Assembly: GCA_945787125.1 (NCBI GenBank)
Contig: CALZHW010000003.1
Location: 4,094 to 68,093 of the forward strand
Reading direction: 5' to 3'
Origin: an uncultured Ectothiorhodospiraceae bacterium
Lineage (GTDB): Bacteria > Pseudomonadota > Gammaproteobacteria > S012-40
Length of the DNA stretch: 64,000 nucleotides
The notes under the pieces were generated by a model, which was given only the letters and a program-made list of their open reading frames with translations, did no database searches and had not been told where the DNA came from. Both the position numbers and the translations under genes were made by a program. Positions 5,750 to 25,027 of this stretch are shown in pieces; within the stretch, counting starts at the first letter, position 1; each line of letters opens with the position of its first letter.

Positions 5750-7126
5750 TTAAGCTGGCAAACTAATGCGAAACTCTGTATTTGCATCAGTCGAAGTAAC
5801 AACAATTTTTCCACCATGAGATTCAATAATCGATTTAACGATCGCTAAACCTAATCCCGCGCCTTCACTGCTGCGCTGACGCGATGGATCGATGCGGTAA
5901 AAACGGTCGAAGATTTTTTCAAGGTGGGCGGGCGAGACTAGCGATCCCGGGTTTTGTACAACGATAGTTACGCCTTTTTTATCGCGATTGAGCATTACAT
6001 TTACACAATTATTGGCCGATGTGTGACGAATAGCATTGGAGAGCAGGTTGCTAAGTGCTCGGCGCAACATTAAAGGATCACCTTGTACATGAGCTTGGCC
6101 TTCAAGTATTAACGTCACATGGCTTTCTTCCGCCCAAGCTTCGTAATAATCAAACAGATTACGCACCTCACTTTTTAAGTCAACGTCTTCTATATTGAGC
6201 GAGTTTAATCTATTGTCAGTTTTAGCCAAGAAGAGCATGTCACCAATCATTTGTGCCATACGTTCGTACTCTTCCATGTTGGAATAAAGAATTTCCCGAT
6301 ACTCAGTTGCAGTTCGAGCGTGAGAGAGGGCGACTTGAGTTTGGGTCATTAGGTTAGTAACAGGCGTGCGGAGTTCATGGGCGATGTCAGCAGAGAAATT
6401 TGAAAGTCGATTAAAGGCATCTTCCATACGTTGCAAGAGTGCGTTAAACGACATTGCCAGTGCAGTGAGTTCAGCGGGAACAATGCCGGGGTCGAGGCGG
6501 ATATTTAATTCACTAGCGTTAATTCCGCTGATCTGATCGACCATATGGTGTAATGGCCGATGCCCCTGACGTACGGCAATCCAACTCATTAGCGCCATGA
6601 TTGCAATGCCAACAATAACCATGAGCCAAAGTGTGTGGTGAAAGCTTTCAAGAAACTTTAGGTGAAAATCAATGGCGATGGCAACTACAACAGTGTACGA
6701 GTTATTATCCAGACCGGTGATCTGTTGCACGAATACTCGGTAATTTTGCTCGGCGTGACTCCATGTTTGCAATACCCCCTGATCAAGTTGTATAGATGGC
6801 GGCGTTGGCATTAAAGAAAGATCTGAGCCGGGACTTGCGTAAAAATATTTTCCTGAGGAATCTATAATATGCAGTAATGCACTATGATGCCCGACCAGAA
6901 TATCATTGAAGCGCTGTTCTATACGTACAATATCATCGTTAGACTTTAGCTCGAGCAACGCTTTCTCCACCGCTTGGGTTATCATTTTAAGTTCGTTAAT
7001 ATCACCTGAATCGAAATGACTCTCGATGGATCGCTCAACGATCCATCCGAATGCGAGCAACACAAACATCGCCACGGTGCTAAACCACAGGGTAAGCCGT
7101 AACGTCAGAGAGATAGGGCGTTTCAT
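5750..7126 (-). CDS. Heavy-metal sensor histidine kinase (CusS/CopS family)
   Basis: Two transmembrane segments, a periplasmic sensor, a HAMP domain, the H-box HELRTPVTNL typical of the CusS/CzcS family, and the HATPase motifs. Confidence 0.8.
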   Translation of the reverse strand: MKRPISLTLRLTLWFSTVAMFVLLAFGWIVERSIESHFDSGDINELKMITQAVEKALLELKSNDDIVRIEQRFNDILVGHHSALLHIIDSSGKYFYASPGSDLSLMPTPPSIQLDQGVLQTWSHAEQNYRVFVQQITGLDNNSYTVVVAIAIDFHLKFLESFHHTLWLMVIVGIAIMALMSWIAVRQGHRPLHHMVDQISGINASELNIRLDPGIVPAELTALAMSFNALLQRMEDAFNRLSNFSADIAHELRTPVTNLMTQTQVALSHARTATEYREILYSNMEEYERMAQMIGDMLFLAKTDNRLNSLNIEDVDLKSEVRNLFDYYEAWAEESHVTLILEGQAHVQGDPLMLRRALSNLLSNAIRHTSANNCVNVMLNRDKKGVTIVVQNPGSLVSPAHLEKIFDRFYRIDPSRQRSSEGAGLGLAIVKSIIESHGGKIVVTSTDANTEFRISLPA

Positions 7127-7813
7127 TTATACATCGTTGTCCGGCGTGTCGATCATATAGCCCATACCTCGCACGGTATGAATCAGCTTGAGCGGAAAAT
7201 TGTCGTCAATTTTGCCGCGTAAACGACGAATGGCGACATCAATGACATTTGTGTCACTGTCAAAATTCATGTCCCACACTTGGGAGGCAATAAGGGAGCG
7301 TGGTAATACCTCACCCCGACGGCGAACCAGCAGTTCCAGCAGCGCAAATTCCTTGGCGGTCAAGTGGATGCGACGGCCGCTACGACTGGCGCGGTGCCGC
7401 GCTAAATCTAATTCCAGATCGGCAATACGCAAATTCAACTCGGCAGTGGGCATCGCGCCACGCCGCAACAGGGTGCGCACTCGCGCCAGCAGTTCGGCAA
7501 AAACGAAAGGTTTGACCAGATAATCATCTGCCCCTAGCTCCAACCCTTTTACTCGATCATCCACACTGTCTCGCGCGGTAAGAAAAAGCACAGGCACCTC
7601 TTTACCAGCCTCGCGCAGCGATTTCAAAATACGCCAGCCGTCCACATCAGGTAACATAACATCGAGAATCAGTAGGTCGTAATACTCGGTCATTGCCAGG
7701 TGATGACCGTCAAGTCCGTTGTGCGCGAGATCAACGACAAAACCCGCCTCGCTCAGCCCCTGCTTGAGGTATTCACCCGTTTTAACTTCATCTTCGACAA
7801 TCAATAATTTCAT
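7127..7813 (-). CDS. OmpR-family response regulator (CusR/CopR-like)
   Basis: Receiver domain (DD...D in LILDVMLP, K in LVKPF) plus a winged-helix C-terminus. It is translationally adjacent to the kinase gene. Confidence 0.85.
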
Positions 7814-7891: not shown

Positions 7892-7929
7892 ATGACAACC
7901 ACATTACAAAATTGTAACGTAATCGTCAT
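7892..7929. promoter_or_regulatory. Nested palindrome in the divergent promoter region between the response regulator and the metal-cassette genes; candidate response-regulator (cop/cus-box-like) operator
   Basis: atgacaacc-acaTTACAA-aa-TTGTAAcgtaatc-gtcat. The inner element is a perfect 6-bp inverted repeat with a 2-bp spacer, flanked by an outer tgaca/tgtca inverted repeat. Confidence 0.4.
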
Positions 7930-8012
7930 GCTAGCGACAGCGTTCAGTTTTTACTATTGCAGAACGAGAATCGCGAAGATGATCATAAACAGAGGTAAAA
8001 GGTAAAAGGTAA

Positions 8013-8471
8013 TTGATGAATTTTAATAAACATAACATAATGGCCTGGGTATTTATTGGCATATTGGTGCTTGTTTCAGCAGCTCACGCAGCGGGTGAAC
8101 ACAAAGATGCTCATACATCGGGGCATGATAATTCCACTGCCCAAAGCGGAATGTTTTTGCAGAAAATGACGGTTGATGGCTACGATGTTAGCTTTCACAT
8201 CATGAAAGCGAAAGAGGGCAAAGAGATGGGCGGCAGCCATGACCTCATGCTCAAGGTGGAACTCGGCGGTAAGGCGCTCACTGACATCGTTATGAATACC
8301 AAAGTCGTACTCCCCAATGGCAAAGCCGAAAGCAAAAAAGCCATGAAAATGGGTGATTGGCTAATGGCCGGTTATGACCTGGGGCACCCGGGTAAACATC
8401 AGGTGATGATTCTATTTAAAACCGCCGATGGCAAAAAACACAAGGGTGGGGTTTATTACGAAGACAAATGA
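8013..8471 (+). CDS. Secreted His/Met-rich putative metal-binding protein, uncharacterised family (paralog A1)
   Basis: Signal peptide, a His-rich N-terminus (HKDAHTSGHDNS), and a conserved core FHIMKAK...MKMGDWLMAGYDLGH..KHQ.MILFKTADGKKHKGGVYY. It is about 65% identical to ORF 15185..15655. Confidence 0.6.
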   Translation: MMNFNKHNIMAWVFIGILVLVSAAHAAGEHKDAHTSGHDNSTAQSGMFLQKMTVDGYDVSFHIMKAKEGKEMGGSHDLMLKVELGGKALTDIVMNTKVVLPNGKAESKKAMKMGDWLMAGYDLGHPGKHQVMILFKTADGKKHKGGVYYEDK

Positions 8472-8510
8472 TAAGTTGCTGGGGTATTCATCAATGTAAG
8501 AGGCACAATC

Positions 8511-9092
8511 ATGTCAATCATTAACACGCCTAAAGGACATAAGTTTCCCTGGTACGTCAAACTGTTTTTCTGGAATCAGCAGCGCAAGTACGGCGCGATT
8601 CTAGAACCGGCGCGGCTATGGGGGAGGTCACCCAAAGTATTCGCCACGCTGGCCTTGCTCTATGGCGCTTTTGATCGCAACGACTCACCGTTGGAGCCGT
8701 CATTGCGTACTCTGGTAACGGTACGAGTATCTCAGATTAACTGGTGCCCTTTCTGTGTTGACATCAATTCTGCCACGGCGCTGAAGCGGGGAATCACAGC
8801 TGAGAAACTTACCCTTCTTGCCGATTATGCTACCAGCGATCTTTATAGCGACAAAGAAAAAGCGGCACTTGCCTATGCCGAGGCGATAACCGACAGCAAC
8901 CAACAGCCTACCGAAGAACACTTCGCGACGCTACGCCGCTACTTCAACGACAACGCCATTATCGAACTCACTGGTTTAATCTGCTTTCAGAACATGTCGA
9001 GCAAATTTAACGCTGCTTTAGATGTTAAACCACAGGGCTTTTGCGCTATCGCGCCGCAGCCTGTTATGGATAAACAGAATAAAGAGAATTAA
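8511..9092 (+). CDS. Carboxymuconolactone decarboxylase (CMD/AhpD-like) family protein
   Basis: AhpD-like CxxC motif in VSQINWCPFCVDINSATALKRG, and a size of about 190 aa. Confidence 0.7.
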   Translation: MSIINTPKGHKFPWYVKLFFWNQQRKYGAILEPARLWGRSPKVFATLALLYGAFDRNDSPLEPSLRTLVTVRVSQINWCPFCVDINSATALKRGITAEKLTLLADYATSDLYSDKEKAALAYAEAITDSNQQPTEEHFATLRRYFNDNAIIELTGLICFQNMSSKFNAALDVKPQGFCAIAPQPVMDKQNKEN

Positions 9093-9187: not shown

Positions 9188-10489
9188 TTGAATTTTCGAT
9201 CTCGATACTGGTTCAATTCGCTCATACGTGTCTTGTTGATAAGTACACTGATTTTGGGGGTGTCGATCGCGCAGGCATCGGAAGTGCTGACTTTGGACAA
9301 GGCGGTCGCCGAAGTCTTAAGTGCGCATCCTGGTCTGGCGGCTATTGAAGCGCGGGCCAAGGCGCTGGCCACGATTCCAGATCAGGCGGGCGCTCTGCCT
9401 GACCCTAGTTTGTCGGTTAATATCGTCAATCTGCCATTAGATAGTTTATCTTTTAACCAGGAGGGTATGACGCAGTTTCAGGTGGGTATTACACAAGCAC
9501 TGCCATATCCTGGCAAGTTGGCCTTGCGTTCCCAAACTGCTCGGCATGAAGCAGAGGCCGCTAGTGCAGATGTAAAAGAAAAACAGCTGCAACTGGTTCG
9601 TGATGTCAAAACCGTGTGGTGGAACCTCTTCTATCTGGACCGGGCGCTTGAGGTCATTGCCCAAAACCAGATCCTACTGAAGCAGTTCGTCAATGTAGCG
9701 GAGACGCGTTATACGGTCGGTCAGGGCTTGCAACAAGATATTCTGCTGGCGCAATTGGAGTTGTCCAAATTGAGTGACAGCGCTATTCGCGTGCAAAATA
9801 TGCGGGAAAACGAGGTGGTTCGACTGAATATATTGATGGATCGTCCTGTGGCAGAAGCCATCCTACTTCCGGTTGTCGTTGATGAAGCATTGTTGGTGAT
9901 GATGAGTGTGGACGTGTTGCAACAGCGGGTAGAAACAACGCGCCCAAGCCTGGTAGCGCAGATCAAACGTATGGGAGCGGCACGCAGTCGTGTTGATTTG
10001 GCGAAAAAGGATTACGCACCTGATTTTAAAGTGGGCGCAATATATGGCCTGCGTAATGGTAACAACCCCGATGGCAGCGGGCGCGCTGACTTTGGTTCCG
10101 TTATGTTTAGCATGAATCTTCCCCTCTACACCGGTAGCAAGCAGGATCGCGCCGTTGATCAGCGTAATGCTGAGTGGATGCAGCAAAAATACCAGCTGCA
10201 TGATCAACGTAATCAGGTAGCTTCTCAAGTACAGCAGGCCATGATTGACTATCGTCGAGCCGGTGAACGGACACAACTTTTTCAGCAGAAAATTCTTCCT
10301 CAAGCTCGCCAGACCGTAGATGCCATGTTGGCGGGGTATCAGGTTGGCAAGGTTGATTTTTTGGATCTAATTCGCAGCCAAACCACACTTTATGACTATG
10401 AAACCCAATATTGGAAAGCCCTGAGTGGCGCGAATCAGGCTTTAGCTCGATTGATTGCTGCGGTTGGCGAGGAGACTATTTATGAATAA
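9188..10489 (+). CDS. Outer-membrane efflux factor, TolC/CusC/CzcC family
   Basis: Signal peptide and the two-repeat OEP architecture. It is the first gene of a three-gene RND operon with overlapping stop/start codons. Confidence 0.8.
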   Translation: MNFRSRYWFNSLIRVLLISTLILGVSIAQASEVLTLDKAVAEVLSAHPGLAAIEARAKALATIPDQAGALPDPSLSVNIVNLPLDSLSFNQEGMTQFQVGITQALPYPGKLALRSQTARHEAEAASADVKEKQLQLVRDVKTVWWNLFYLDRALEVIAQNQILLKQFVNVAETRYTVGQGLQQDILLAQLELSKLSDSAIRVQNMRENEVVRLNILMDRPVAEAILLPVVVDEALLVMMSVDVLQQRVETTRPSLVAQIKRMGAARSRVDLAKKDYAPDFKVGAIYGLRNGNNPDGSGRADFGSVMFSMNLPLYTGSKQDRAVDQRNAEWMQQKYQLHDQRNQVASQVQQAMIDYRRAGERTQLFQQKILPQARQTVDAMLAGYQVGKVDFLDLIRSQTTLYDYETQYWKALSGANQALARLIAAVGEETIYE

Positions 10490-11957
10490 GAGTACTGTAG
10501 CATTGGTCGTTGTTTTTGCTTTGGGTATTGGCTTTGGTGGAGGCTATTTTCTCTTCAGCCCAAATACCTCAGAGAAAATGGATGCAACGCAGAGCCAATC
10601 AGGCGAACGCAAGGTGCTGTTTTGGCGTAACCCCATGAATCCAGCCATTACCTCGCCGGTTTTCATGCAGGATGACATGGGCATGGATTACATCCCTGTC
10701 TACGCCGATGGAGAGAGGCCCAAAGAAAAAGAGGTGCTCTTTTATCGTAACCCCATGAACCCAGCTATTACCTCACCGGTATTTATGCAGGACGAAATGG
10801 GTATGGATTACATTCCCGTTTATGCCGACGGTGGTGCGGGAGATGAACTCGCTGGCACGGTTACAATTGATCCAGTCACAGTGCAAAATATTGGTGTACG
10901 TACAGCAGTTGCGGAAACCCGTGATTTATCACGGGCACTGAACGGCCTGGGGCGGGTTGATTTCAACGAAGAACGACTGGCCCGTTTGCATCCCAAGACC
11001 TCCGGTTGGATTGAACAATTAATGATTGATGAAACTGGCAAGCGAGTGAATAAAGACACCATCCTGCTTGGCATCTATTCCCCCGACTTGGTGGCTGCGC
11101 AGCAGGAGTATTTGGTGGCGCTTATTAACTGGGAAGCAGTGCGTGACAGCGCTGCTTCCCAAATGAACAAAAGTGCCAAAACCGTCCTGGAAAGCGCCCG
11201 TGAGCGCTTGCACTTATTTGATGTGGCGGAACATCAGATCAAAGAACTGGAAAAAAACCGAAAAATCAAAAAACAACTCCACATCCACTCTCCCTTTGAA
11301 GGTCAGATCATGCACATTGGTGCGAGGGAAGGGCAATATGTCACACCCAAAGACGAGCTTTATCTCATTGCTGACCTAAGTCGCATCTGGGTCAATGTGG
11401 ATATTTTTGAAGATGAATTAAGCTGGTTGAAGTTGGGTAATCGTGCCGAGATGCGCGTGCGTGCGCAACCGGGTCGAACCTATGAAGGCAAAATTACCTT
11501 TATTCATCCGATATTAAATCGTAAAAGCCGCTCAGTACAGGTACGTTTGGAATTCGACAACCGCGATCATTCACTCAAACCAGGCATGTTTGCCAACGTT
11601 ACACTCTATGTCGACCCTCAACCCAGTGCCGTGGTGGTGCCCAGCGAAGCGATTGTGCGTTCAGGCAGTCGCGAACAAGTGTTTGTCGTGCGTGAACCAG
11701 GCAAGTTTGAACCCCGTGAAGTGACACTGGGTGTGAGTGCTGAAGGTTTGACTCAAATCTTATCTGGTGTTGAGGCGGGAGAGCAGGTGGTGACCTCCAG
11801 CCAGTTCCTCATCGACTCCGAATCCAAGCTGCGTGAAGCCACGGCCAAGATGATGAAAGCGATGGCGGGTGAGGGTGACTCCGCTGGTATAGATATGTCG
11901 GACATGGAGATGGATGACATGGATATGGACGATGCATTGATGGAGGATCAACCATGA
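10482..11957 (+). CDS. RND periplasmic adaptor (membrane fusion protein, CusB/CzcB family) with a duplicated Met-rich N-terminal motif and a Met/Asp-rich C-terminal tail
   Basis: HlyD-like beta-barrel and lipoyl-like regions. The 33-aa motif LF(W/Y)RNPMNPAITSPVFMQD(D/E)MGMDYIPVYADG occurs twice. The C-terminus is MSDMEMDDMDMDD. The likely start, MNKSTV at 10482, overlaps the upstream stop. Confidence 0.8.
   Translation: MNKSTVALVVVFALGIGFGGGYFLFSPNTSEKMDATQSQSGERKVLFWRNPMNPAITSPVFMQDDMGMDYIPVYADGERPKEKEVLFYRNPMNPAITSPVFMQDEMGMDYIPVYADGGAGDELAGTVTIDPVTVQNIGVRTAVAETRDLSRALNGLGRVDFNEERLARLHPKTSGWIEQLMIDETGKRVNKDTILLGIYSPDLVAAQQEYLVALINWEAVRDSAASQMNKSAKTVLESARERLHLFDVAEHQIKELEKNRKIKKQLHIHSPFEGQIMHIGAREGQYVTPKDELYLIADLSRIWVNVDIFEDELSWLKLGNRAEMRVRAQPGRTYEGKITFIHPILNRKSRSVQVRLEFDNRDHSLKPGMFANVTLYVDPQPSAVVVPSEAIVRSGSREQVFVVREPGKFEPREVTLGVSAEGLTQILSGVEAGEQVVTSSQFLIDSESKLREATAKMMKAMAGEGDSAGIDMSDMEMDDMDMDDALMEDQP
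10611..10833 (+). repeat. Intragenic tandem duplication (about 102 bp x2, period 120 bp) encoding the duplicated Met-rich motif
   Basis: 10611..10712 and 10731..10833 are about 80% identical and in frame. Confidence 0.8.
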
Positions 11958-14900
11958 TCACCAGCATCATTGACGCCTCCCTGCGTAATCGCTTCCTGAT
12001 TATCATCGCCACTATTATAATCGTGGCGGCAGGGCTGTGGTCGATGAAAAATACACCGCTGGATGCGATTCCTGATCTCTCAGATGTGCAGGTCATCGTC
12101 TTCACCGAATACCCTGGTCAAGCACCCCAAGTGGTTGAAGATCAAGTCACCTATCCGTTGACTACGGCCATGCTGGCCGTGCCCAACGCCAAGGTAGTAC
12201 GCGGTTATTCCTTTTTTGGTTTCTCCTTCGTCTACATCATCTTTGACGACGGTACCGACATGTACTGGGCGCGTTCGCGGGTTCTGGAGTATCTCAACTA
12301 CGTCAGCGGTCGTCTGCCTGATGGCTTAACACCTTCATTAGGGCCGGATGCCACCGGAGTAGGCTGGATCTATGAATATGCCCTGGTCGATAGAACCGGC
12401 AATACCGACCTGGCAGAATTGCGTTCTATTCAAGACTGGTATCTGCGTTATCCCTTACAGACGGTAGAAGGGGTCGCCGAAGTGGCGTCCGTTGGCGGTT
12501 ATGTCAAACAGTATCAGGTAGAAGTCGATCCCAATGCGTTGCTGGCCTACAGCATTCCGCTGTCGAAAGTGAAGCATGCCATTCAGCGCTCTAACAACGA
12601 TGTCGGTGGTAAGTTGGTGGAGATGGCCGAGACTGAATACATGGTGCGCGGCCTGGGTTATATTCAGTCTATTGATGACCTCAATGTGATACCGGTTGGC
12701 GTCGATGAAAATGGCACGCCGATTCGTTTGCAGGATGTGGCGCATGTGCACTTGGGCCCTGAACTGCGCCGTGGCGTGGCGGAATTCAATGGCGAAGGCG
12801 AAGTGGCGGGCGGTGTGGTGATTATGCGCTACGGTGAAAATGCCATGGCGGTCATTGAACGAGTGCGCGCCAAACTGGAAACGTTAAAACCCGGCTTGCC
12901 TGAAGGGGTAGAGATTGTGCCAGTCTATGATCGGGGCGACCTCATTACACGGGCGGTGGAAAACCTTGAAGAGAAATTGATCGAAGAGATCATCGTCGTT
13001 AGCATCATCTGTATCTTGTTTTTGCTGCATGCCCGTTCGGCTTTAGTGGCAATTATCTCCCTGCCTATCGGCATCTTGCTCGCTTTTACGATCATGAAAT
13101 GGCAGGGCATCAATGCCAACATCATGTCCTTAGGGGGGATTGCGATTGCCATTGGTGCCATGGTGGATGGGGCGATTGTGATGATCGAAAACGCGCACAA
13201 ACACCTGGAGCAAATGGTTAAAGAGAAAGGCCGAGAACTAACTTCGCCCGAACGATGGCAAGCTGTCTCAGAAGCATCCCGAGAAGTCGGCCCGGCACTG
13301 TTCTTTTCGCTACTGATTATCACCGTCTCCTTCCTGCCAGTGTTTACCTTACAAGCACAGGAAGGGCGACTTTTCGCGCCACTCGCCTTTACAAAAACCT
13401 ATGCTATGGCTGCGGCGGCTATCTTGGCGATTACCTTAGTACCGGTGCTAATGGGTTATTTTATTCGCGGCAAGATTCCGCCTGAAGCCAAAAATCCGGT
13501 CAACCGTTTTCTCCATTTCATTCATGTACCGACACTGGATCTTGCCATTCGCTGGCGTTGGGTGACATTAACGTTGGCCCTGCTGTTGTTAGTTGCAACG
13601 GCCTATCCACTCAGCAAGCTGGGCAGTGAATTTATGCCGCCGCTGAATGAGGGTGACATTCTTTATATGCCGACTACCTACCCTGGTGTTTCTATCACCA
13701 AGGCCAAGGAACTCTTGCAGCAGACAGACAAGATCATTAAAACGTTTCCCGAGGTGCAGAGTGTTTTCGGCAAGGTGGGGCGAGCCGAAACCGCTACTGA
13801 TCCGGCGCCGCTGGCAATGCTCGAAACCACGATTCGACTCAAACCCAAAGACGAGTGGCCTGACCCGAAAAAGACAGTGAAAGAACTGATGGACGAGATG
13901 GACGCGGCGATTAAATTTCCGGGGCTAGCCAACGCTTGGACCATGCCTATCAAGACCCGCATCGATATGCTTTCCACCGGTATTAAAACACCCATCGGCA
14001 TCAAGGTTAGCGGGCCTGATTTAAAGGTATTGGAGGAGGTTGGTAATGATATCGAGCAGGCCTTGAAACAACTACCCGATACGCTCTCTGCTTTTGCGGA
14101 TAAAGCAGCCGGTGGTTACTACCTCGACTTCGATATCAACCGCGAAGAGGCGTCCCGTTACGGGCTCACCACTGGCGATGTACAGGATGTGATTCAGACC
14201 GCCATCGGTGGCATGAACGTGACTCAGACCGTTGAAGGCTTGGAGCGTTATCCGATCAACTTGCGTTATCCCCGCGAGCTACGCGATAACCTCGATAGTC
14301 TAAAGCGAGTATTGATTCCCACACCCACCGGCGCGCAAATTCCTCTGTCGCTGGTAGCTGATCTGGAACTGCGTCGTGGTCCACCAGGCATCAAGAGCGA
14401 AAACTCTCGCCCCAATGCTTGGGTTTATGTGGATATCAAAACTTCGGACATTGGCGGTTATGTGGAACAGGCCAAAAAGGTGGTGGCCAGCCAGGTCAAA
14501 ATCCCGCCCGGCTACAACCTCGTGTGGTCCGGTCAGTTCGAGTACATGGAGCGGGCGGCCGAACGTTTACGTATCGTCGTGCCCGCTACCTTATTGGTGA
14601 TTTTTCTGTTGCTCTACTTCAACTTCCGCAACATCACTGCGCCGTTGGTCGTCATGCTCTCCATTCCATTTGGTTTGATCGGTGGCTTTTGGTTGATCTA
14701 TTTGTTGGGCTACAATCTCTCGGTTGCTGTGGTGGTCGGGTTTATCGCCCTGGCAGGAGTCGCGGCGGAGATTGGCGTTTTGGTGCTTACCTTCATCGAT
14801 CAAGAATTGGCTCGGCGTCGTAAAGAAAAAGGTCACTTAGACGCGGCTGACATCATGTCCGCTGTGCATCGCGGCACATCAGCACGGGTTCGTCCCATCG

Positions 14901-15148
14901 CCATGACGGCCACTGCAATTATCGCTGGTCTGCTACCCATCATGTGGGGCACTGGCACAGGATCTGAAGTGATGCAACGCATCGCTGCACCAATGGTGGG
15001 TGGTATGGTCACAGTCACGATTCTCTGCCTGCTGGTGTTACCAGTAATCTATGGCTTGGTTCTTCAAGTCCAGGAAAAATTTAAACAGGGTCATAACGAC
15101 CAGGAGACAGCTTCGCATAATGGGTTGGGCGAAACTGGTACTCGATAA
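11954..15148 (+). CDS. Heavy-metal efflux RND transporter (HME-RND, CusA/CzcA family)
   Basis: 1064 aa, 12 TM segments with two large periplasmic loops, and the characteristic AIVMIENAHK and GG..VM motifs of CusA/CzcA pumps. Confidence 0.9.
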   Translation: MITSIIDASLRNRFLIIIATIIIVAAGLWSMKNTPLDAIPDLSDVQVIVFTEYPGQAPQVVEDQVTYPLTTAMLAVPNAKVVRGYSFFGFSFVYIIFDDGTDMYWARSRVLEYLNYVSGRLPDGLTPSLGPDATGVGWIYEYALVDRTGNTDLAELRSIQDWYLRYPLQTVEGVAEVASVGGYVKQYQVEVDPNALLAYSIPLSKVKHAIQRSNNDVGGKLVEMAETEYMVRGLGYIQSIDDLNVIPVGVDENGTPIRLQDVAHVHLGPELRRGVAEFNGEGEVAGGVVIMRYGENAMAVIERVRAKLETLKPGLPEGVEIVPVYDRGDLITRAVENLEEKLIEEIIVVSIICILFLLHARSALVAIISLPIGILLAFTIMKWQGINANIMSLGGIAIAIGAMVDGAIVMIENAHKHLEQMVKEKGRELTSPERWQAVSEASREVGPALFFSLLIITVSFLPVFTLQAQEGRLFAPLAFTKTYAMAAAAILAITLVPVLMGYFIRGKIPPEAKNPVNRFLHFIHVPTLDLAIRWRWVTLTLALLLLVATAYPLSKLGSEFMPPLNEGDILYMPTTYPGVSITKAKELLQQTDKIIKTFPEVQSVFGKVGRAETATDPAPLAMLETTIRLKPKDEWPDPKKTVKELMDEMDAAIKFPGLANAWTMPIKTRIDMLSTGIKTPIGIKVSGPDLKVLEEVGNDIEQALKQLPDTLSAFADKAAGGYYLDFDINREEASRYGLTTGDVQDVIQTAIGGMNVTQTVEGLERYPINLRYPRELRDNLDSLKRVLIPTPTGAQIPLSLVADLELRRGPPGIKSENSRPNAWVYVDIKTSDIGGYVEQAKKVVASQVKIPPGYNLVWSGQFEYMERAAERLRIVVPATLLVIFLLLYFNFRNITAPLVVMLSIPFGLIGGFWLIYLLGYNLSVAVVVGFIALAGVAAEIGVLVLTFIDQELARRRKEKGHLDAADIMSAVHRGTSARVRPIAMTATAIIAGLLPIMWGTGTGSEVMQRIAAPMVGGMVTVTILCLLVLPVIYGLVLQVQEKFKQGHNDQETASHNGLGETGTR

Positions 15149-15184: not shown

Positions 15185-15655
15185 ATGAGAAAAGTAGTAA
15201 AACCTTTATCAGCGATCACCTTCGTCGCATTGTTAGCGGCAACAGGATCTTTGTACGCATCAGGTGATCACTCACAGGGTCACGATGATCATAATAAGTC
15301 TGAAATGAAACATGATAATCACGGCTCTACCATGGGAGAAATGTTTCTAAAGAAAACGGAGATCGATGGTTACGATGTTAGTTTTCATATCATGAAAGCC
15401 AAACCTGGCAAACAGATGGGTGGCACCCATGACTTTATGGTTAAAGTCGAAAAAGATGGAAAGGCACTTTCTAACATTGTTATGAATACGAAAGTTAAAC
15501 ACCCAAACGGCAAGTCGGAAAGTAAAAAAGCCATGAAGATGGGGGATTGGCTGATGGCAGGTTATGACTTGGGGCACGAAGGTAAACACCAGTTAATGAT
15601 TTTGTTTAAGACCGCTGATGGTAAGAAACACAAAGGCGGTGTTTATTATCCATAG
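15185..15655 (+). CDS. Secreted His/Met-rich putative metal-binding protein, uncharacterised family (paralog A2)
   Basis: Signal peptide, His-rich N-terminus (GDHSQGHDDHNKSEMKHDNHGS), and the same conserved core as ORF 8013. Confidence 0.6.
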   Translation: MRKVVKPLSAITFVALLAATGSLYASGDHSQGHDDHNKSEMKHDNHGSTMGEMFLKKTEIDGYDVSFHIMKAKPGKQMGGTHDFMVKVEKDGKALSNIVMNTKVKHPNGKSESKKAMKMGDWLMAGYDLGHEGKHQLMILFKTADGKKHKGGVYYP

Positions 15656-15726: not shown

Positions 15727-16356
15727 ATGATTGAAATAATTCCCAATTGGCACCCGATTTTCGTGCACTTTACTGTCGCATTATTATCGCTGGCAGCCGG
15801 ACTTTTTGTCGTAACACCGTTTATTAAATCTCCGTTGAAAGAACAGTGGATCATCGTTGCCCGGTGGACGTTGTGGTTCGGCGCGGGAATCACCATCATT
15901 ACGGGACTCACCGGACTTTATGCATATAACACAGTTGATCACGATTCTCCGTCGCACCTGGCAATGACGGAACATCGCAACTGGGCGATTGTGACAATCT
16001 CGCTTTTTCTAGCGCTTGCTGCGTGGTCTATAGTCTGGGTACGTAAAAACAAAACGTTGGGAACAGCGTTTGTGGTGTGTATTGCGATCGCAGGCGCTGT
16101 CTTGGGCTCTACCGCTTGGCACGGTGGCGAAGTGGTCTATCGTTATGGCATTGGCGTGATGTCGTTACCGAAAGTAGAGGGTGACGGACATAACCACGCC
16201 CATGGCGAAAGTAGTGATCATAAAGATGCTTCTAAAACAGGTATGGAAGAACGTCACAATAATCACAGCGAAAGGGAACATCAAGATGAAATGAAGATGG
16301 ATTTCAGTGACATGGATACGATGAAAAATGATGATGGTCATGATCATGACCATTAA
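15727..16356 (+). CDS. DUF2231-like integral membrane protein with a His-rich C-terminal tail
   Basis: Four predicted TM helices, an N-terminal NWHPIFVHF motif, and a C-terminal HNHAHGESSDH...DDGHDHDH tail. Confidence 0.55.
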   Translation: MIEIIPNWHPIFVHFTVALLSLAAGLFVVTPFIKSPLKEQWIIVARWTLWFGAGITIITGLTGLYAYNTVDHDSPSHLAMTEHRNWAIVTISLFLALAAWSIVWVRKNKTLGTAFVVCIAIAGAVLGSTAWHGGEVVYRYGIGVMSLPKVEGDGHNHAHGESSDHKDASKTGMEERHNNHSEREHQDEMKMDFSDMDTMKNDDGHDHDH

Positions 16357-16498: not shown

Positions 16499-18943
16499 AT
16501 GAAAACCGATCCGGTTTGTGGCATGGACGTGGCGGATGATACTCGATATCACACGAATCACAATGAGCAGATGTTTTACTTTTGCAGTGAGCATTGTTTG
16601 CATAAATTTGAGACTGAGCCAGAAAAATATGTGCAGACCGAGTCGCTCACCGATCCAGTGTGCGGTATGAATGTCACTGAGGAGTCGGTGCATCACACTG
16701 AGCATAGGGGCAAAACACATTATTTTTGCAGTACAGGCTGTTTGAATAAGTTTTTGGCATCATCAGAACAATATCTTAGGGATGTTCACTCTCAACACGC
16801 CGTTCATGATAATAAGTCGGTGGATAAGTCCGCGATCTACACTTGCCCCATGCATCCTGAAATCGAACAGCAAGGCCCGGGCAGTTGTCCTAAGTGCGGT
16901 ATGGCGCTGGAACCGCGCACGGTCGAAGCCGATGAGGATACCAGCGAACTGGATGACATGACACGCCGTTTCTGGGTCAGCTCTCTACTGGCGATCCCGG
17001 TTTTTTTTAGCGCTATGGCTGCCGAGTTTTGGCCAGAGTTCATCAATGGCCTAATTTCACCGGTCGCACGGCAATGGGGCGAGCTCATTTTATCCGCTCC
17101 TGTAGTGTGGTGGGGTGGCTGGGTTTTCTTTCAACGCGGCTGGCAATCTATTGTCACTCGCAATCTTAATATGTTCACGTTAATAGCTGTCGGTGTTGGT
17201 ATTGCCTGGATTTACAGTCTTATTGCAGTACTGCTGCCGGGTATATTTCCGCCCGCTGTCTTTAGTGAGGCAGGAGTAGTTCCGGTCTATTTTGAAGCTG
17301 CCGCTGTGATTACCGCTCTCGTCCTGTTAGGGCAAGTAATGGAGCTGCGCGCTCGTAGCCAAACCAATGCTGCCATTAAACTTCTGCTTGGCCTGGCCCC
17401 AAAAGCAGCGCGTATTGTTCGTGAAGATGGCACGGAGGAAGATATTCCGTTGGAGCATGTTCAAGTTGGAGATCACTTACGTATTCGTCCCGGCGAAAAA
17501 ATACCTGTGGATGGTAATGTTATCAATGGTGAAAGTAATGTTGACGAATCCATGGTGACCGGTGAGCCAATTCCTGTCGCCAAGTCAGTGGGCGAGCGAC
17601 TAATCGGCGCTACCGTCAACGGTACAGGTGGCCTGTTGATGCGCGCCGAGAAAGTGGGTGCCGATACGTTGCTCGCACAGATCGTCAAAATGGTTGCTGA
17701 TGCGCAGCGCTCCCGCGCACCGATTCAAAAATTGGTGGATATTGTTGCCGGTTACTTCGTACCGACAGTGGTGGTCATCGCCGTTATTACCTTCATTGTT
17801 TGGAGTTTGTTTGGGCCGGAACCCGCTATTGCCTATGCCGTGATTAACGCCGTGGCGGTATTGATTATTGCCTGCCCTTGTGCGCTAGGTTTAGCCACTC
17901 CCATGTCCATCATGGTTGGTACCGGCAAAGGAGCGATGATGGGGGTGTTGATCAAAAATGCGGAGGCATTAGAGATTATGCAAAAGGTGGATACTCTGGT
18001 TGTGGACAAAACCGGTACGCTTACCGAAGGCAAACCAAAGCTGGTCTCGGTGTTTGCCAATGAAGATTTTAAAGAGAATGACAATCTGCGTCTGGCTGCC
18101 AGTTTAGAGCGAGCTAGCGAGCATCCGCTGGCGGAAGCGATTGTGAAAGGCGCTGAGGAACGTGGAATAGATTTGGCTCAAGCTCAAAACTTTCAATCAG
18201 TAACTGGCAAGGGTGTTACCGGAAATGTAGACGGAAGGGAAGTGGCCCTGGGAAATCTAAAATTACTTGAGAGTCTCGGTATTGATGCGGGTGGTTTGCC
18301 GCAACAAGCAGACAATCAACGTGCCGAAGGTCAGACCGTGATGTTGCTGGCGGTTGATGGTAAAGCCGCGGGTTTGATCGGTGTCGCCGATCCAATTAAA
18401 GAGAGCACACCGGAGGCGATCCGTAATTTACATGAGGAAGGTATCCGCGTGGTCATGCTCACCGGGGATAGTCGCAAGACCGCCGAAGCAGTCGCTGCTA
18501 AACTGGGTATTGATCAAGTACACGCCGAAGTGTTGCCAGAACAAAAAGCTGAAGTAGTAAAACAACTTCAGGCTGAAGGATTCATCGTCGCCATGGCGGG
18601 TGATGGTATCAATGATGCGCCTGCTTTGGCCCAGGCCCATGTGGGCATTGCCATGGGTACTGGTACTGATGTAGCCATGGAAAGCGCAGGTGTAACATTG
18701 GTCAAGGGTGATTTGCGAGGCATCGTACGTGCTGTGCGATTATCGCGCGCCACTATGCGCAACATTCGCCAAAACTTGTTCTTTGCCTTTATCTATAACG
18801 CCGCCGGAGTGCCAATAGCGGCGGGGGTGCTTTATCCCGTCTTCGGATTACTACTCTCTCCCATGATAGCGGCAGCAGCCATGAGCTTCAGTTCGGTATC
18901 AGTGATCACCAATGCCTTACGGTTGAGGCGAGTTAAATTATGA
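16499..18943 (+). CDS. copA: Copper(I)-translocating P1B-type ATPase with an N-terminus of two TRASH/YHS domains plus a CPMHPE..CPKCGM domain
   Basis: TRASH/YHS motifs CGMDV...FCSEHC and CGMNV...FCSTGC, then [22 protein letters not shown], then the CPC transduction motif, [15 protein letters not shown] and the HP motif. 814 aa. Confidence 0.9.
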
Positions 18944-18961: not shown

Positions 18962-19648
18962 ATGCAACAAATGCATGGTGATACTGGGTATGCCTATGGT
19001 ATGTGGGTAGTAGCGGCTTTTAACATCGGCATTTTTCTGTTTTTCATTTTAAGTTTTCTCAAGCCGCGGGGCAGCGAGGAATGGCGCAGCATGGGGGTAG
19101 TAACTGCCTTTCTGGTGGCACTCTTCGCCGAGATGTATGGTTTTCCTTTAACGATTTATCTGCTTTCTGGCTGGTTAGGCGATGCCTACCCAGTGTTACA
19201 ACCCTTCAACCATAAATACGGTCACCTTTGGGTAGTGGTGTTTGGTGGCTCAACCCTGGCTTGGGCAATAGTGATGGGTTTGAGTCTGGGGTTTATGATA
19301 ATGGGCTATATGCTACTCTCGAAGGGCTGGACGCAGATCCACGCTGCTCAAGGTGGATTGGTTTCTAACGGAATCTATGCTTATGTGCGTCATCCTCAAT
19401 ACACAGGATTGTTCCTCGTTATTATCGGTTTTCTAATTCAGTGGCCCACGTTGCTCACCGTGATAATGGCTCCCATTCTTCTTTATGCTTATACACATTT
19501 AGCACGAGTCGAAGAAAAGCGTGCGGAGAAAGTATTTGGTGACGCATATATTAAATACGCAGACAAAACGCCTGCTTTTTTTCCACCACTAAATCAATGG
19601 CACGCATTTCTAACACTAGAGGTAGACAAATTAGATGAGAGAAAATAA
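18962..19648 (+). CDS. Isoprenylcysteine carboxyl methyltransferase (ICMT/PEMT) family membrane protein
   Basis: Multi-TM protein with the NGIYAYVRHPQYTG motif of the ICMT family. Confidence 0.65.
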   Translation: MQQMHGDTGYAYGMWVVAAFNIGIFLFFILSFLKPRGSEEWRSMGVVTAFLVALFAEMYGFPLTIYLLSGWLGDAYPVLQPFNHKYGHLWVVVFGGSTLAWAIVMGLSLGFMIMGYMLLSKGWTQIHAAQGGLVSNGIYAYVRHPQYTGLFLVIIGFLIQWPTLLTVIMAPILLYAYTHLARVEEKRAEKVFGDAYIKYADKTPAFFPPLNQWHAFLTLEVDKLDERK

Positions 19649-20100: not shown

Positions 20101-23100
20101 TTAATTACCTTTTTTGGCTATATTTAGCGATTTTATTTTCTTATAATCAAATTGCGGATCATTTTCTGCTCGTCGAGTAAAGTCGTATTCCCCTCGAAGG
20201 TTCACGTGGGCCCAGGTAATGACAGATCCCTCACCAATCGATTTAATGATAATAGAACGCTGCTCTTTATTGGGTGTTTCTATGATTAAATTCGAAAGGT
20301 ACAAATAATTCCAAAGTATAATCGAATTTTGTAACAAGACTTGGCAGGCTGTTGATAGTTGCTGTTCTTCTTTTGTTCCAACTTGAAATGCCTGATCATT
20401 ATCAAAAAATACAGCATGTGCGAATTTATTGGTTTGTTCAATTCGATTTAATTGCTTTTGGATCTGTTGCCTTAGCTCCACATCATCATAATACGTCAAT
20501 ATGAAATTAGATTTTATGATTCTTCCAAGTTCTTGAAGTGCTTTGTATAAAGGGTGGGATTTGTTATATGAATTTAGTCGACTAAATAATTGAGATGCCG
20601 ACGTGTGGTTCATTTTTATCGTTGCGATGAATCTAAGCACATCGTCCCAATGTTGAAGAATATGCTTTTTGTCAATTGATCGACTGGGAAGAAGAACATA
20701 ACCTTTTTTCTCGTAGGTTCGTCTTGCAGAAAAACTGATTAATCGTTGGTGTCCAATGTTTTTTATTCGTGGCGCAAAATCAACACCAATCATATGGGTA
20801 GCTGCGAAAACTTGCTCAGTATATCCATGTGTGTCGGTTGAGTGAATTTGATTTTGTGAGACATTATTATGCATTAAACCATCAATGACATATGCCGCTT
20901 CTCGATCAGATGAACTAAAAACAGTTGAATAAAATAACGATTGTCGTTCATCAATAAAGGTATACATGGTTACCCCTTTTTCTTTACCAAAATATTTGAA
21001 CGAATAATTGGCATGGAGACTATCAACTGAGACATTCACTTTCCGGCCATCGCTACTGGAATGTAATATTGAAGGCTTATTAATATAATTATTGGCAAGC
21101 CCTAAGCCATGGATCGCACTCACAATACGCTGATTGGCTTCTGTGATATTTTTTAGATCAAGGCACCAATTAACTGCATTATGTAATATATGTTCAGAAA
21201 TGCCGGTAGAAATATTCGCTAGTTTTCGTATGCCAATATTACACCCCTTACCAATTACACCGGCTAAAAGGGTTTCTTCTGAAGGCTTTAATTTGACATT
21301 TTTAGTGCTAAAGTGTTTAAAACACTGAGTGAAATCTGTTGCTGCATTAACTTCTTTAAGGACTTTCAGTATGGGTGTATATCCGTTTTGAGTTAACGTT
21401 GTCGTGATAAATTCTTTGCCTTCATTATCGACGCCCGGTGTCGTAATGACAGGTTTCCCGGCAGCATTAATTTTAAAAAAGGGATTTTTATTGTCAATAA
21501 TGCGTTGATTAACCGAATGATATTTTTCATCTAATACCTCCTTTAGTTTGCCTAAATAATCCTTACCATCAGCAAATTTTGATAGATCACATTCCTCGAG
21601 TATGCGCTCTTTATTGTCTTTCCAATATTGTTTGTCAATCATGTAATCTTGAAATGCCCTGTATCGATAAGAATAAAGTAAATTTAATTTATCAGATCGA
21701 ATTCCTTTTGAAATATGAACAAACAAAAGGCATTTATAAAGGGGTACGACAAATTTATTCTCGTGGTAGAGACTGGCAAGTTCTGAGTCACTGAGAAATG
21801 CAGTGGGTGCTCGATGTGTTATTTTTCCATCAGTTTCTTTAAAATAATCAATTGCCTCCAGTAGTTCCGGTGACGAGTTTGTGCGATCAAATTCCAAAAC
21901 ATTAATAATACCGGATACTCGGCGCTGTAATTTATTTGACTGTGATTTAAGTAACTCGTAATAAGCTTGATTTCTTGCTTCTTTTGATAAATATTCATCG
22001 ATGGTGTTCAATTTTCCTTCGTCTTCTGTGGTTAAATCATCAAGTAAATTAACCAGTTCTTCAATTTTATGATATTTTTCATTTGGTGTAGCATCTTTGG
22101 ACTCTACAATCGTAATAACCGCTTTACTAAATTCCAATAACGACTTGTGCGAATTGTTTAATATTTGTAACGCTTCGTTTCTTTCTTTTTTTGTCTCTTG
22201 CTCTTTATTAGATAACTTGGAATTAACAGCATGAAGCATGGAATTCACCGATTTTTGGAGTATTTCAACCAAGGCATCTTGTCGTAAATAAAACTGATGC
22301 TTAATAAAAGCAAGAAGATGTAAATACACCTTATATCGATCCGACAATTGATTTAATTGCTGATAATCCACTTTTGAAAACCATGTCGCAAAATATTCTG
22401 TGGCAGGGTCACTGAGTGGCAATGTTTTAAGTATATTTTCCATTGACATAATAAGGTCTTTAAATATCAGCGTGTTTTTAATGTTTTCTTTAATTTCACC
22501 AGGTTTCAATCCTTGATTGATATTTTTTAAATCAGTGATGAAAGGGCGAGAACGTTGAAAATCGTTCTTTTCGTATGACAGTATGTTTTCTAAGCTTTGA
22601 CAATCTTCGCTGTTCAATTGCCTGGATAAACAATCAATTAACTGCAGCTCTGTTACGTTAATACAATCCTGAATGATGAGGCATAAGTCAGTATAGGAAG
22701 GTATACAAAATTGGTGTTTCCAGCACTGATCAATAAGTCCAATGAAAATGTCTTTAGGCTTAACTTGGTTATTCGCTTGTCGTAAAGCAAAGTTAGTGAG
22801 CATGTCATTTTCCGATGACCCAAATTTTGACCAACCTTGTTGGACTAAAATTTTGGAACGATGTTTAGAGTTGATTGTACTGTTGTATTTTTGCAAATCG
22901 ATATCTTTACATTGTAAAATTGCTTGGACGTGTTGAATATCGCGTTTTTTGAATTTTTCCGTGGGATAAAATCGAGCATTTGCCCGAAAATAGGCTAACT
23001 GCAAAAGAAAGCCAGCTCGCATATGATGATTTTCCATTCTGGATATGGATCGCTTTAAGCCGGGTGTTAATGAAAAATACAATGTCCGTTCTTCATTGTT

Positions 23101-23163
23101 GAATTTTGGTGGCAATTCGAATTGGCTTTTTTCCTGAGGCGACAGAATGGCAAGTAGAGTCAT
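20101..23163 (-). CDS. tnpA: Tn3-family transposase
   Basis: 1020 aa. N-terminal IR-binding region similar to Tn3 TnpA (..AGFLLQLAYFRANARF..) and a C-terminal DDE RNase-H-like domain. Confidence 0.9.
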   Translation of the reverse strand: MTLLAILSPQEKSQFELPPKFNNEERTLYFSLTPGLKRSISRMENHHMRAGFLLQLAYFRANARFYPTEKFKKRDIQHVQAILQCKDIDLQKYNSTINSKHRSKILVQQGWSKFGSSENDMLTNFALRQANNQVKPKDIFIGLIDQCWKHQFCIPSYTDLCLIIQDCINVTELQLIDCLSRQLNSEDCQSLENILSYEKNDFQRSRPFITDLKNINQGLKPGEIKENIKNTLIFKDLIMSMENILKTLPLSDPATEYFATWFSKVDYQQLNQLSDRYKVYLHLLAFIKHQFYLRQDALVEILQKSVNSMLHAVNSKLSNKEQETKKERNEALQILNNSHKSLLEFSKAVITIVESKDATPNEKYHKIEELVNLLDDLTTEDEGKLNTIDEYLSKEARNQAYYELLKSQSNKLQRRVSGIINVLEFDRTNSSPELLEAIDYFKETDGKITHRAPTAFLSDSELASLYHENKFVVPLYKCLLFVHISKGIRSDKLNLLYSYRYRAFQDYMIDKQYWKDNKERILEECDLSKFADGKDYLGKLKEVLDEKYHSVNQRIIDNKNPFFKINAAGKPVITTPGVDNEGKEFITTTLTQNGYTPILKVLKEVNAATDFTQCFKHFSTKNVKLKPSEETLLAGVIGKGCNIGIRKLANISTGISEHILHNAVNWCLDLKNITEANQRIVSAIHGLGLANNYINKPSILHSSSDGRKVNVSVDSLHANYSFKYFGKEKGVTMYTFIDERQSLFYSTVFSSSDREAAYVIDGLMHNNVSQNQIHSTDTHGYTEQVFAATHMIGVDFAPRIKNIGHQRLISFSARRTYEKKGYVLLPSRSIDKKHILQHWDDVLRFIATIKMNHTSASQLFSRLNSYNKSHPLYKALQELGRIIKSNFILTYYDDVELRQQIQKQLNRIEQTNKFAHAVFFDNDQAFQVGTKEEQQLSTACQVLLQNSIILWNYLYLSNLIIETPNKEQRSIIIKSIGEGSVITWAHVNLRGEYDFTRRAENDPQFDYKKIKSLNIAKKGN

Positions 23164-23266
23164 ATTAATTATCCTTAATTAAAAATTGACGGCAGAATGA
23201 TCTAATAAAGAGCCGTTAGACCTCGAATACGATGGGGAATCATGATACTGTATTGTTATCAAATAT

Positions 23267-23302
23267 CAATATGTCCGATAATAGTTATTATCGGACATAT
23301 TG
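23267..23302. promoter_or_regulatory. Perfect 17-bp inverted repeat with a 2-bp spacer between tnpA and the recombinase gene; candidate core recombination (res/IRS) site
   Basis: caatatgtccgataata-gt-tattatcggacatattg, located 50 bp upstream of the tyrosine recombinase start. Confidence 0.45.
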
Positions 23303-23350
23303 AATACGGCATATTTTCCGCTATAATTAGCATATTATGGAAAGCCTAGA

Positions 23351-24724: not shown

Positions 24725-25027
24725 ATGAGAATTATTGCTAAAAGGCGTCTTCGAGAGTTTTGGAGCTCAAACCCCAAATACGCAGATTCAAAAGCCCCCT
24801 TAGAAGCATGGCATGAAGAAGTGTCTGAAGCAGACTGGGAAAACCCACAGCAAGTTAAGTCCCAATTTCGTCATGCCAGCATTCTCAAAGATAGTCGTGT
24901 TGTATTCAATATCAAGGGAAATAATTACCGCTTAGTCGCCAAGATTAATTACCCCTATAGAATCGTTTATGTACGCTTTCTTGGGACTCATCGGCAATAT
25001 GATGAAATAGATGTGGAGACAATATAA
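24725..25027 (+). CDS. higB: HigB-like type II toxin (RelE/ParE superfamily mRNA interferase)
   Basis: 100 aa. FNIKGNNYRLVAKINYPYRIVYVRFLGTHRQYDEI resembles the HigB core (FNVGGN.LRVV....YIREV.THKEYD). The toxin gene comes first, as in higBA loci. Confidence 0.65.
   Translation: MRIIAKRRLREFWSSNPKYADSKAPLEAWHEEVSEADWENPQQVKSQFRHASILKDSRVVFNIKGNNYRLVAKINYPYRIVYVRFLGTHRQYDEIDVETI

Follow-up and report, generated by a model that had tools for sequence, protein, structure and literature searches.

The attachment of a small periplasmic copper protein to a resistance-nodulation-division (RND) efflux pump is already known, and so is the YtkA-like fold. The CusCBA pump of Escherichia coli requires the metallochaperone CusF (PMC6235853), while CrdA, a copper-resistance determinant of Helicobacter pylori, is the secreted part of the copper-induced crdAB-czcBA RND system, which is controlled by the two-component system CrdRS (PMC12319023, PMC9182242). 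Here we describe two related secreted proteins, encoded by the open reading frames (ORFs) ORF A and ORF B, from a stretch of 64,000 nucleotides (the window) of an uncultured Ectothiorhodospiraceae bacterium (assembly GCA_945787125.1, contig CALZHW010000003.1, positions 4,094 to 68,093), where they enclose the cusCBA genes of a copper island and probably serve the co-encoded pump as periplasmic Cu(I)/Ag(I) chaperones in place of CusF. The novelty lies in the subfamily, in the candidate His/Met/Trp ligands and the His-rich leader of its members, in the place of their genes after cusA and in the ecological range.

Like the window proteins, CrdA (HP1326; structures 9ll2 and 9ll4) is small, secreted, Cys-free and periplasmic, and is encoded together with an outer-membrane factor, a membrane fusion protein and an RND pump; its operon is switched on by copper by way of a two-component system, and the order cusRS / ORF A / cusCBA / ORF B in the window, together with a CusR-box-like site, suggests a similar induction there. 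The two systems differ in gene order (crdA-crdB-czcB-czcA, as opposed to genes that stand after cusA or before the whole operon), in the pump, which in the window is clearly of the CusA type, and in the metal site: CrdA, which has been treated as CopC-like and contains no His, has as its metal site a His-free Met-rich loop, MMxEMPGMxxMxEM (PMC9182242), whereas the window proteins carry His and Met (and Trp), with two Met in the loop, and a His-rich leader.

CusF (cusCFBA; PF11604) and SilF are small periplasmic Cu(I)/Ag(I) carriers of cusCBA operons under CusRS, which is the role proposed here for the window proteins, and CusF shares with them a His-rich N-terminal segment. Its ligands are one His, two Met and one Trp, in the arrangement WxxMxM plus His, with which the conserved MxMxxW plus His of the window proteins, as candidate ligands, may be compared. 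However, CusF is a five-stranded barrel of the oligonucleotide/oligosaccharide-binding (OB) fold, as opposed to the nine-strand immunoglobulin (Ig)-like sandwich predicted for the window proteins, shows no sequence or structure match to them and occupies another position in the operon.

A third point of comparison is the Pfam family PF13115, with CtaK (YtkA) and the C-terminal domain of YcnJ. It is likewise extracytoplasmic, its conserved His and Met residues are presumed copper ligands, and it carries a His-rich segment, such as the tail EEEHSHHH of CtaK (PMC9145763). According to a 2025 paper (PMC12362106), CtaK and the YcnJ domain are the only YtkA proteins that have been studied experimentally. 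CtaK is a Gram-positive lipoprotein that aids assembly of the CuA site of cytochrome caa3 together with Sco, whereas the window proteins are predicted to be soluble, linked to efflux and His-rich at the N-terminus. Full-text searches of the literature yielded no paper on the present family, nor on YtkA/CrdA-like proteins as substitutes for CusF.

Two paralogous secreted proteins and their family

ORF A (8016..8471, + strand, 151 aa) opens the copper operon on the + strand, in divergent orientation to cusRS, while its paralog ORF B (15185..15655, + strand, ATG start, 156 aa) lies 36 nt 3' of cusA. An earlier reading of the DNA from its letters alone (the sequence-only reading) had begun ORF A at 8013, where the ORF list gives a TTG start and 152 aa; the ORF exists, although its true start is likely the ATG at 8016, since a 151-aa gene is called on the identical contig CALZJZ010000003.1 of the metagenome-assembled genome GCA_945787865.1 and AAGG repeats lie just 5' of it. 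ORF B has AAGGA 8 nt 5' of its start. The same reading had proposed that the two ORFs share a Cys-free core, which is borne out by BLASTP (65% identity over 148 aa, E 1e-66), and its consensus string for that core agrees with both translations; neither protein contains any Cys. Identity over the 104-codon core is 81% for protein and 78% for DNA, and dN/dS is 0.047 at a dS of about 2.4, which indicates old duplicates that are both under strong purifying selection. The core identity and the low dN/dS rule out a chance resemblance or a decaying copy.

Both proteins start with a classical Sec signal peptide (basic n-region and hydrophobic h-region; residues 9-23 of ORF A form a helix in the AlphaFold model) with predicted cleavage sites AHA|A in ORF A and LYA|S in ORF B, followed by a His-rich leader of low confidence, with three His in about 20 residues in ORF A and five in about 27 in ORF B, which AlphaFold leaves without structure in both. 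Signal peptide and leader had been claimed before, and the n- and h-regions, cleavage motifs and His counts agree with that claim. The predicted mature N-terminus (residues 26-29 of both) has the conserved form x-G-[D/E]-H, with A25 invariant and H29 at least 90% conserved in the alignment of the close family (A1); the His would be in mature position 4, near the amino-terminal Cu(II)- and Ni(II)-binding motif (ATCUN; x-x-H for Cu(II)) but not matching it.

The family is a compact one. Among 5.8 billion clusters, searched by word index, it has 463 proteins, all named 'hypothetical' except for a few UniRef entries called 'YtkA-like domain-containing', and HMMER, run exhaustively with a profile on 1.84 billion representatives (50% identity), found 107 clusters at E<=1e-3, 23 of them at E<=1e-30. 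A scan of one genome per species gave 73 loci, whose hosts are marine, sediment or vent Gammaproteobacteria (Chromatiaceae, Sedimenticola, Ca. Tenderia, Thiohalomonadales, Polarisedimenticolaceae), Zetaproteobacteria (Mariprofundus and Ghiorsea, two being cultured strains) and Nitrospinota. Mariprofundus micogutta ET2 and Mariprofundus sp. EBB-1, both in culture, have cusCBA together with the family gene (L043, L067); no member was found by tblastn on the plasmids of PLSDB. The core has 37 invariant columns in 51 sequences, and Cys is essentially absent from the family, which suits an oxidising periplasm. The leader is 0-68 aa long (median 36) and consists of 16% His, 14% Asp and 16% Gly, with a median of five and up to 14 His.

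Zetaproteobacteria (Mariprofundus and relatives) have a second, far more divergent tandem paralog (about 40% core identity) after the first copy 3' of cusA (8001-8510 and 9294-9746 in locus L043, 8016-8444 and 9193-9633 in L077, 8001-8997 in L067). Two distant members are fused to other domains: P0217 carries a C-terminal Redoxin/thioredoxin domain with WCPPC and a weak SCO1/SenC match, and P0219 two C-terminal HMBD heavy-metal-binding domains. Judged from their domain content, these fusions point to metal or redox handling across the wider clade.

Fold and superfamily placement

ORF A, ORF B and six close homologs all lack a Pfam match even at E<=10, and searches of NCBIfam (E<=1) and of the sequences in the PDB with ORF A and ORF B gave only noise; the sequence-only reading was thus right, at the sequence level, in seeing no match to CusF, CopC, CopK, CopG or PcoE/SilE. 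With the family alignment, AlphaFold2 predicts for both proteins a nine-strand all-beta core of high confidence (pLDDT ~96). The two best Foldseek matches of both models in the PDB are H. pylori CrdA in its apo (9ll2) and silver-bound (9ll4) forms, with E 8.6e-6 and 2.9e-5 for ORF A (best template-modelling (TM) score 0.75) and E 3.5e-5 and 1.4e-4 for ORF B (best TM 0.73); TM scores over the CrdA matches, normalised to CrdA, are 0.70-0.75. Next come FetP/FtrA/P19, DUF4426, PmoD and CopC (E 1e-3 to 0.1), mostly periplasmic copper proteins, and weak matches to Filamin, MG2 and PKD were also obtained.

CrdA in turn matches the Pfam YtkA-like family PF13115 over residues 38-106 with 70.3 bits (E 2.2e-19), far above the gathering cut-off of 25.9 bits, and is therefore a YtkA-like domain protein. 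The same residues give a weak FixH match too, and the published assignment of CrdA as CopC-like may need revision in view of these 70 bits. The family itself approaches PF13115 from below: 25 of 68 diverse members match it at E<=0.1 (best E 3.6e-7), some diverse members giving weak FixH matches as well, and distant relatives lie mostly at or below the cut-off (for example P0214, 25.8 bits). Finally, hhalign joins alignment A1 to an alignment of 27 distant members (A3), ten of which are PF13115-positive at E<=0.01, with a probability of 99.8% and E 1.2e-27 over 150 columns.

Because the direct profile link to CrdA is weak, the placement in the superfamily rests on structure and on this Pfam bridge. 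From CrdA as the top structural match, the match of CrdA to PF13115, the 25 of 68 PF13115 matches and the A1/A3 alignment, we conclude that, within the YtkA-like/CrdA superfamily, ORF A and ORF B make up a divergent subfamily, one that lies below Pfam detection. The description of an uncharacterised novel family, as originally given, stands insofar as there is no curated model or publication for it, but needs amending in that the proteins are a divergent branch of the YtkA-like PF13115 superfamily.

Membership in other families of periplasmic copper proteins can be rejected. For CusF there is no PF11604 match and CusF is not among the top 50 Foldseek matches. P19/FetP/FtrA, CopC and PmoD are, like the window proteins, periplasmic beta-sandwiches, and bind copper via His, Met or Glu (Foldseek E ~1e-3 to 0.1, TM ~0.5). 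However, there is no Pfam match to P19/FetP/FtrA (Foldseek E ~1e-3, TM ~0.5), which have other ligand positions, P19 being larger, and no Ftr1/EfeU permease is found among the neighbours; for CopC (PF04234) there is again no Pfam match, the Foldseek E is 0.02-0.11, the N-terminal His of its Cu(II) site and the MPGM motif of its Cu(I) loop (MxxMPGM) are missing, ligand positions and topology are different and no CopD lies nearby. PcoE/SilE are excluded by the nine-strand core with its pLDDT of ~96, disorder being confined to the leader.

Linkage to cusA, putative CusR control and the copper island

The 73 species-level loci contain 78 family copies, of which 63 are testable for their position, with at least 3.3 kb of upstream sequence. 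Fifty of the 63 lie less than 1 kb 3' of a CusA-like gene on the same strand, which is the place of ORF B, and four more at 1.2-2.2 kb from such a gene; four are divergent from cusRS, as ORF A is, and the remainder are second copies near a first. The copies after cusA and those divergent from cusRS do not split into separate lineages. All three informative distant members also directly follow a CusA-like gene, two of them with overlapping stop and start codons (L084/L085). A significant tblastn match to E. coli CusF occurs in only one of the 73 loci; no PF11604 gene is called in the annotated neighbourhoods of L001, L003 and L005, and the same query finds no match in the window at E<=10.

The pump of the window (11954..15148, + strand) is 56% identical to E. 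coli CusA and conserves its M573/M623/M672 triad as well as the motif A399-D405-E412 (A-x5-D-x6-E) of transmembrane helix 4, which identifies it as a Cu(I)/Ag(I) pump. It is preceded on the + strand by a CusC-like outer-membrane factor (9188..10489; Pfam OEP 2e-48) and a CusB-like membrane fusion protein (10455..11957, gene call from 10482; Pfam HlyD_D23 1.6e-74). Residues ~53-125 of this CusB contain a tandem duplication of a motif of about 32 aa (VLFWRNPMNP...FMQDxMGMDYIPVYAD, or VLFWRNPMNPAITSPVFMQD[D/E]MGMDYIPVYAD), the counterpart of which in E. coli CusB, by alignment, is the Met-rich metal-binding region at the N-terminus (ILFWYDPMYP...FMDMDLVPKYAD); two putative acceptor sites in one CusB-like adaptor are unusual.

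The regulatory genes are encoded on the - strand, as a CusS-like sensor histidine kinase (5750..7126; Pfam PF21085 CusS, HisKA and HATPase_c on the identical gene of L001) and a CusR-like response regulator of the OmpR family (7127..7813; Pfam Response_reg and Trans_reg_C). The intergenic region between cusR and ORF A holds the CusR-box-like perfect palindrome TTACAAAATTGTAA (7904..7917). Related loci have its pattern, T[GT]ACA[AT]NN[AT]TGT[AC]A, in 16 of their 18 cusR-divergent intergenic regions, compared with a background frequency of 0.049 per kb over the loci as a whole, and the cusR-cusC intergenic region of E. coli has TGACAATTTTGTCA at the equivalent place. This conservation and the E. 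coli counterpart provide good indirect evidence that ORF A heads a transcript under putative CusR control. A near copy of the palindrome, with one mismatch, is present at 37391-37404, 5' of unannotated ORFs, and a scan of 7.7-20.1 kb for promoters and terminators gave counts no higher than those of shuffled sequences.

These arrangements bear on the possibility of a copper buffer or sponge, in which leader and core sites would soak up Cu(I)/Cu(II) and shield the periplasm until pump and ATPase are fully induced, without specific docking to CusB or CusA. PcoE and SilE, the model for such a function, are His/Met-rich, Cys-free, secreted and co-induced with copper/silver resistance genes, and the leader of the window proteins is similar to them in composition, with its 16% His and 14% Asp, its median of five and maximum of 14 His, its variable length and its predicted disorder; two copies in one island and the place of ORF A first behind the CusR box, where it would be made early, would also suit a sponge. 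However, PcoE and SilE are intrinsically disordered throughout and have no beta-sandwich core, whereas the conserved part of the window proteins is well folded, and it is this core, not the leader, that is most conserved in the family. Some members are nearly leaderless (minimum 0) and the leader of ORF A has only three His, while the tight adjacency to cusA, including the overlapping stop and start codons of L084/L085, suggests stoichiometric co-production with the pump. Weighing both sides, a sponge seems unlikely, though it deserves more credit than the other alternatives considered below.

The remaining genes of the island are encoded on the + strand. Between ORF A and cusC lies a CMD/AhpD-like (YciW-related) protein (8511..9092; Pfam CMD 3.9e-14; NCBIfam 'YciW-related (seleno)protein' E 1.2e-38, below cut-off), so that the copper efflux operon includes a protein of peroxidase-like or redox type, and a CMD gene is found 3' of the family member in 8 of 50 loci. 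Directly 3' of ORF B comes a DUF2231 membrane protein (15727..16356; Pfam DUF2231 8.2e-13), the commonest downstream companion of the family (within 6 kb 3' in 20 of 50 loci), which in L005 stands beside DUF411/CopG and a MerR-type regulator. It is followed by a P1B-type ATPase with two N-terminal YHS domains and an HMBD (16499..18943; Pfam E1-E2_ATPase, Hydrolase, YHS, HMBD) and, as the last gene of the island, by a membrane methyltransferase of the ICMT/PEMT family (18962..19648; Pfam PEMT/ICMT), which also comes after the ATPase in L005, L017, L020, L025, L027 and L028. The island is adjoined by a Tn3-family transposase (DDE_Tnp_Tn3, 1020 aa, - strand), a phage-integrase-family gene and a HigB-like toxin pair (20101-24613, 25027-25395), and may be mobile cargo. 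Housekeeping genes make up the rest of the window (dnaK, dnaJ, grpE and hrcA at 51-56 kb), and an Xre-like antitoxin/RES-domain toxin pair at 30311-31212 is unrelated to the copper genes.

A P1B-ATPase related to that of the window is found within 6 kb 3' in 19 of 50 loci, and copper taken from such an ATPase might be delivered to a cuproenzyme, for example to the CuA site of a cytochrome oxidase, by a maturation chaperone comparable to CtaK (YtkA) or PCuAC. The superfamily is indeed common to CtaK and the C-terminal domain of YcnJ, both of which aid CuA assembly (PMC13344008, PMC9145763), the distant member P0217 is fused to a thioredoxin/Sco-like CxxC domain, and weak FixH matches occur. But genes for oxidases, Sco or PCuAC are not among the conserved neighbours, and the main linkage is to the efflux gene cusA (50 of 63), under a regulator of the CusRS type that responds to stress; in addition, the proteins are soluble while CtaK is lipid-anchored, and the flanking Tn3-family transposase is typical of resistance cargo. 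We consider such a role in maturation improbable.

Candidate metal site and proposed role

Conservation was measured in 185 sequences divided into close, mid and far groups (residue numbers are those of ORF B, percentages in the order of the groups). Kept across the whole family are H82 (98/52/96%) and M85 (100/91/56%); in the far group, 68% of the sequences have His in place of D83, so that the motif reads THHxMV. H68 (97/78/25%), M70 (96/65/40%), M117 (98/43/59%), M119 (100/65/59%), H135 (96/65/15%) and H149 (98/69/40%) decrease in the more distant groups, and W122 (100% close, 86% mid) is not conserved in the far group. ORF A has Leu in place of H106 and keeps H68, M70, H82, M85, M117, M119 and W122.

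The DSSP strands 63-71 and 82-90 are of equal length, are connected by a loop of ten residues and have alternating hydrophobic residues (F67, I69, F84, V86, V88), which in the model suggests a hairpin with H68 opposite M85 and M70 opposite D/H83 on the solvent side; such a hairpin, if correctly read, would give the sort of His-Met-Met patch that serves for Cu(I) elsewhere. The loop equivalent to the Met-rich loop of CrdA reads K-H-P-N-G-K-S-E-S-K-K-A-M-K-M-G-D-W, with two Met and one His, and its M117-x-M119-x-x-W122 mirrors W44-x-x-M47-x-M49 in the sequence of E. coli CusF. In CtaK, H118 is a functionally essential conserved His, accompanied by conserved Met residues.

This pattern of conservation also bears on a structural or regulatory accessory without a metal site of its own, such as a periplasmic adaptor that stabilises CusBA assembly or a modulator of CusS, or on a chaperone for some other cation. 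Conservation across the deepest splits falls on His and Met (H82, M85) and not on a hydrophobic interface, the nearest structures bind copper or silver, the pump carries the Met triad specific for Cu/Ag, and distant members are fused to HMBD domains. On the other side, the Ig-like sandwich is a generic interaction fold, to which the weak Filamin, MG2 and PKD matches belong, four copies adjoin cusRS rather than cusA, and metal binding is something that we infer. An accessory of this sort ranks as the least probable of the explanations considered.

The reading that we favour, with some reservation, gives ORF A and ORF B, as soluble proteins of the periplasm whose fold is an Ig-type beta-sandwich of the YtkA-like/CrdA-like kind, the role of accessory Cu(I)/Ag(I) metallochaperone of the co-encoded CusCBA, in place of CusF. 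Copper would activate CusS/CusR, and CusR would bind the palindrome at 7904-7917 and switch on ORF A and the downstream genes. Both proteins would be exported by Sec and lose their signal peptides; the flexible His/Asp-rich leader would then catch periplasmic copper, and the folded core would hold the metal at a His/Met site, with H68, M70, H82, M85, M117 and M119 as candidates and W122 as a possible cap. Finally, CusB, with its Met-rich N-terminal motifs, and/or CusA, with its Met triad, would take over the metal for its extrusion. In E. coli, CusF delivers to the Met-rich N-terminal region of CusB, and the duplicated Met motif in the CusB of the window would fit such a hand-over step.

Several lines of evidence argue for this role: the synteny with cusA (50 of 63), together with a CusA of the Cu/Ag type and the absence of CusF; the closeness of both AlphaFold2 models to the Cu/Ag-binding CrdA and the link to PF13115; the conserved His and Met residues, the signal peptides and the His/Asp-rich, Cys-poor leader; the HMBD and thioredoxin/Sco-like fusions, the CusR-box-like site and the dN/dS of 0.05; and the same genetic logic in CrdA, with its copper-induced crdAB-czcBA system under CrdRS. 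From these we infer metal binding, the identity of the ligands, transfer to CusB/CusA and regulation by CusR. The sequence-only reading had left the choice between a Cu(I)/Ag(I) chaperone and a sponge; a function in this range is now well supported, albeit indirectly, by the cusA linkage, the CusR-box-like site, the absence of CusF, the conserved His and Met and the match to CrdA, and of the two the chaperone is the more probable.

A number of points weigh against it. The family gene follows cusA, unlike cusF, which lies between cusC and cusB, and crdA, which is first in its operon, while CtaK, the other characterised relative, supplies an oxidase and not a pump. ORF A and ORF B reach no curated threshold and do not match PF13115 even at E<=10. 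Identity to CrdA is only 15-19%, the direct profile link is weak and not significant (E 0.21 in the PDB profile search) and hhalign against a single 69-residue fragment of CrdA gives a probability of 33% (E 4.5e-4); both CrdA alignments fall in one register, with the Met-rich loop of CrdA on the H106...M117-K-M119 loop. The metal ligands are not transferable from CrdA, since its His-free Met-rich loop is largely replaced here, and M100, M124 and M138 may be conserved just as core residues.

A broader proposal is that in chemolithoautotrophs of the deep sea and of vents, namely Gammaproteobacteria of the Chromatiaceae/Sedimenticola/Tenderia type, Zetaproteobacteria and Nitrospinota, the CusF of the Cus systems gave way to an unrecognised class of CusA-coupled periplasmic metallochaperones, whose YtkA-like sandwich would carry a new Cu(I)/Ag(I) site of His, Met and Trp alongside a His-rich capture arm. 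This is put forward tentatively, as a possibility held with slightly more doubt than belief. The general picture of periplasmic copper handling is unchanged. Many Cus-type operons, including that of the window, lack cusF, and the family offers a testable answer for one large ecological group of bacteria; a function is proposed for about 460 'hypothetical' protein clusters (at 90% identity) that lie outside curated models. The results support a new Pfam/NCBIfam model, and with it a better annotation of copper/silver resistance islands in metal-rich marine settings, and they join CrdA of H. pylori with CtaK and YcnJ of Bacillus subtilis as one copper-handling fold with differing ligand chemistries. 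If the broader proposal is true, the YtkA-like fold would, together with CrdA, be a general and independently recruited alternative to the OB fold of CusF for heavy-metal RND pumps.

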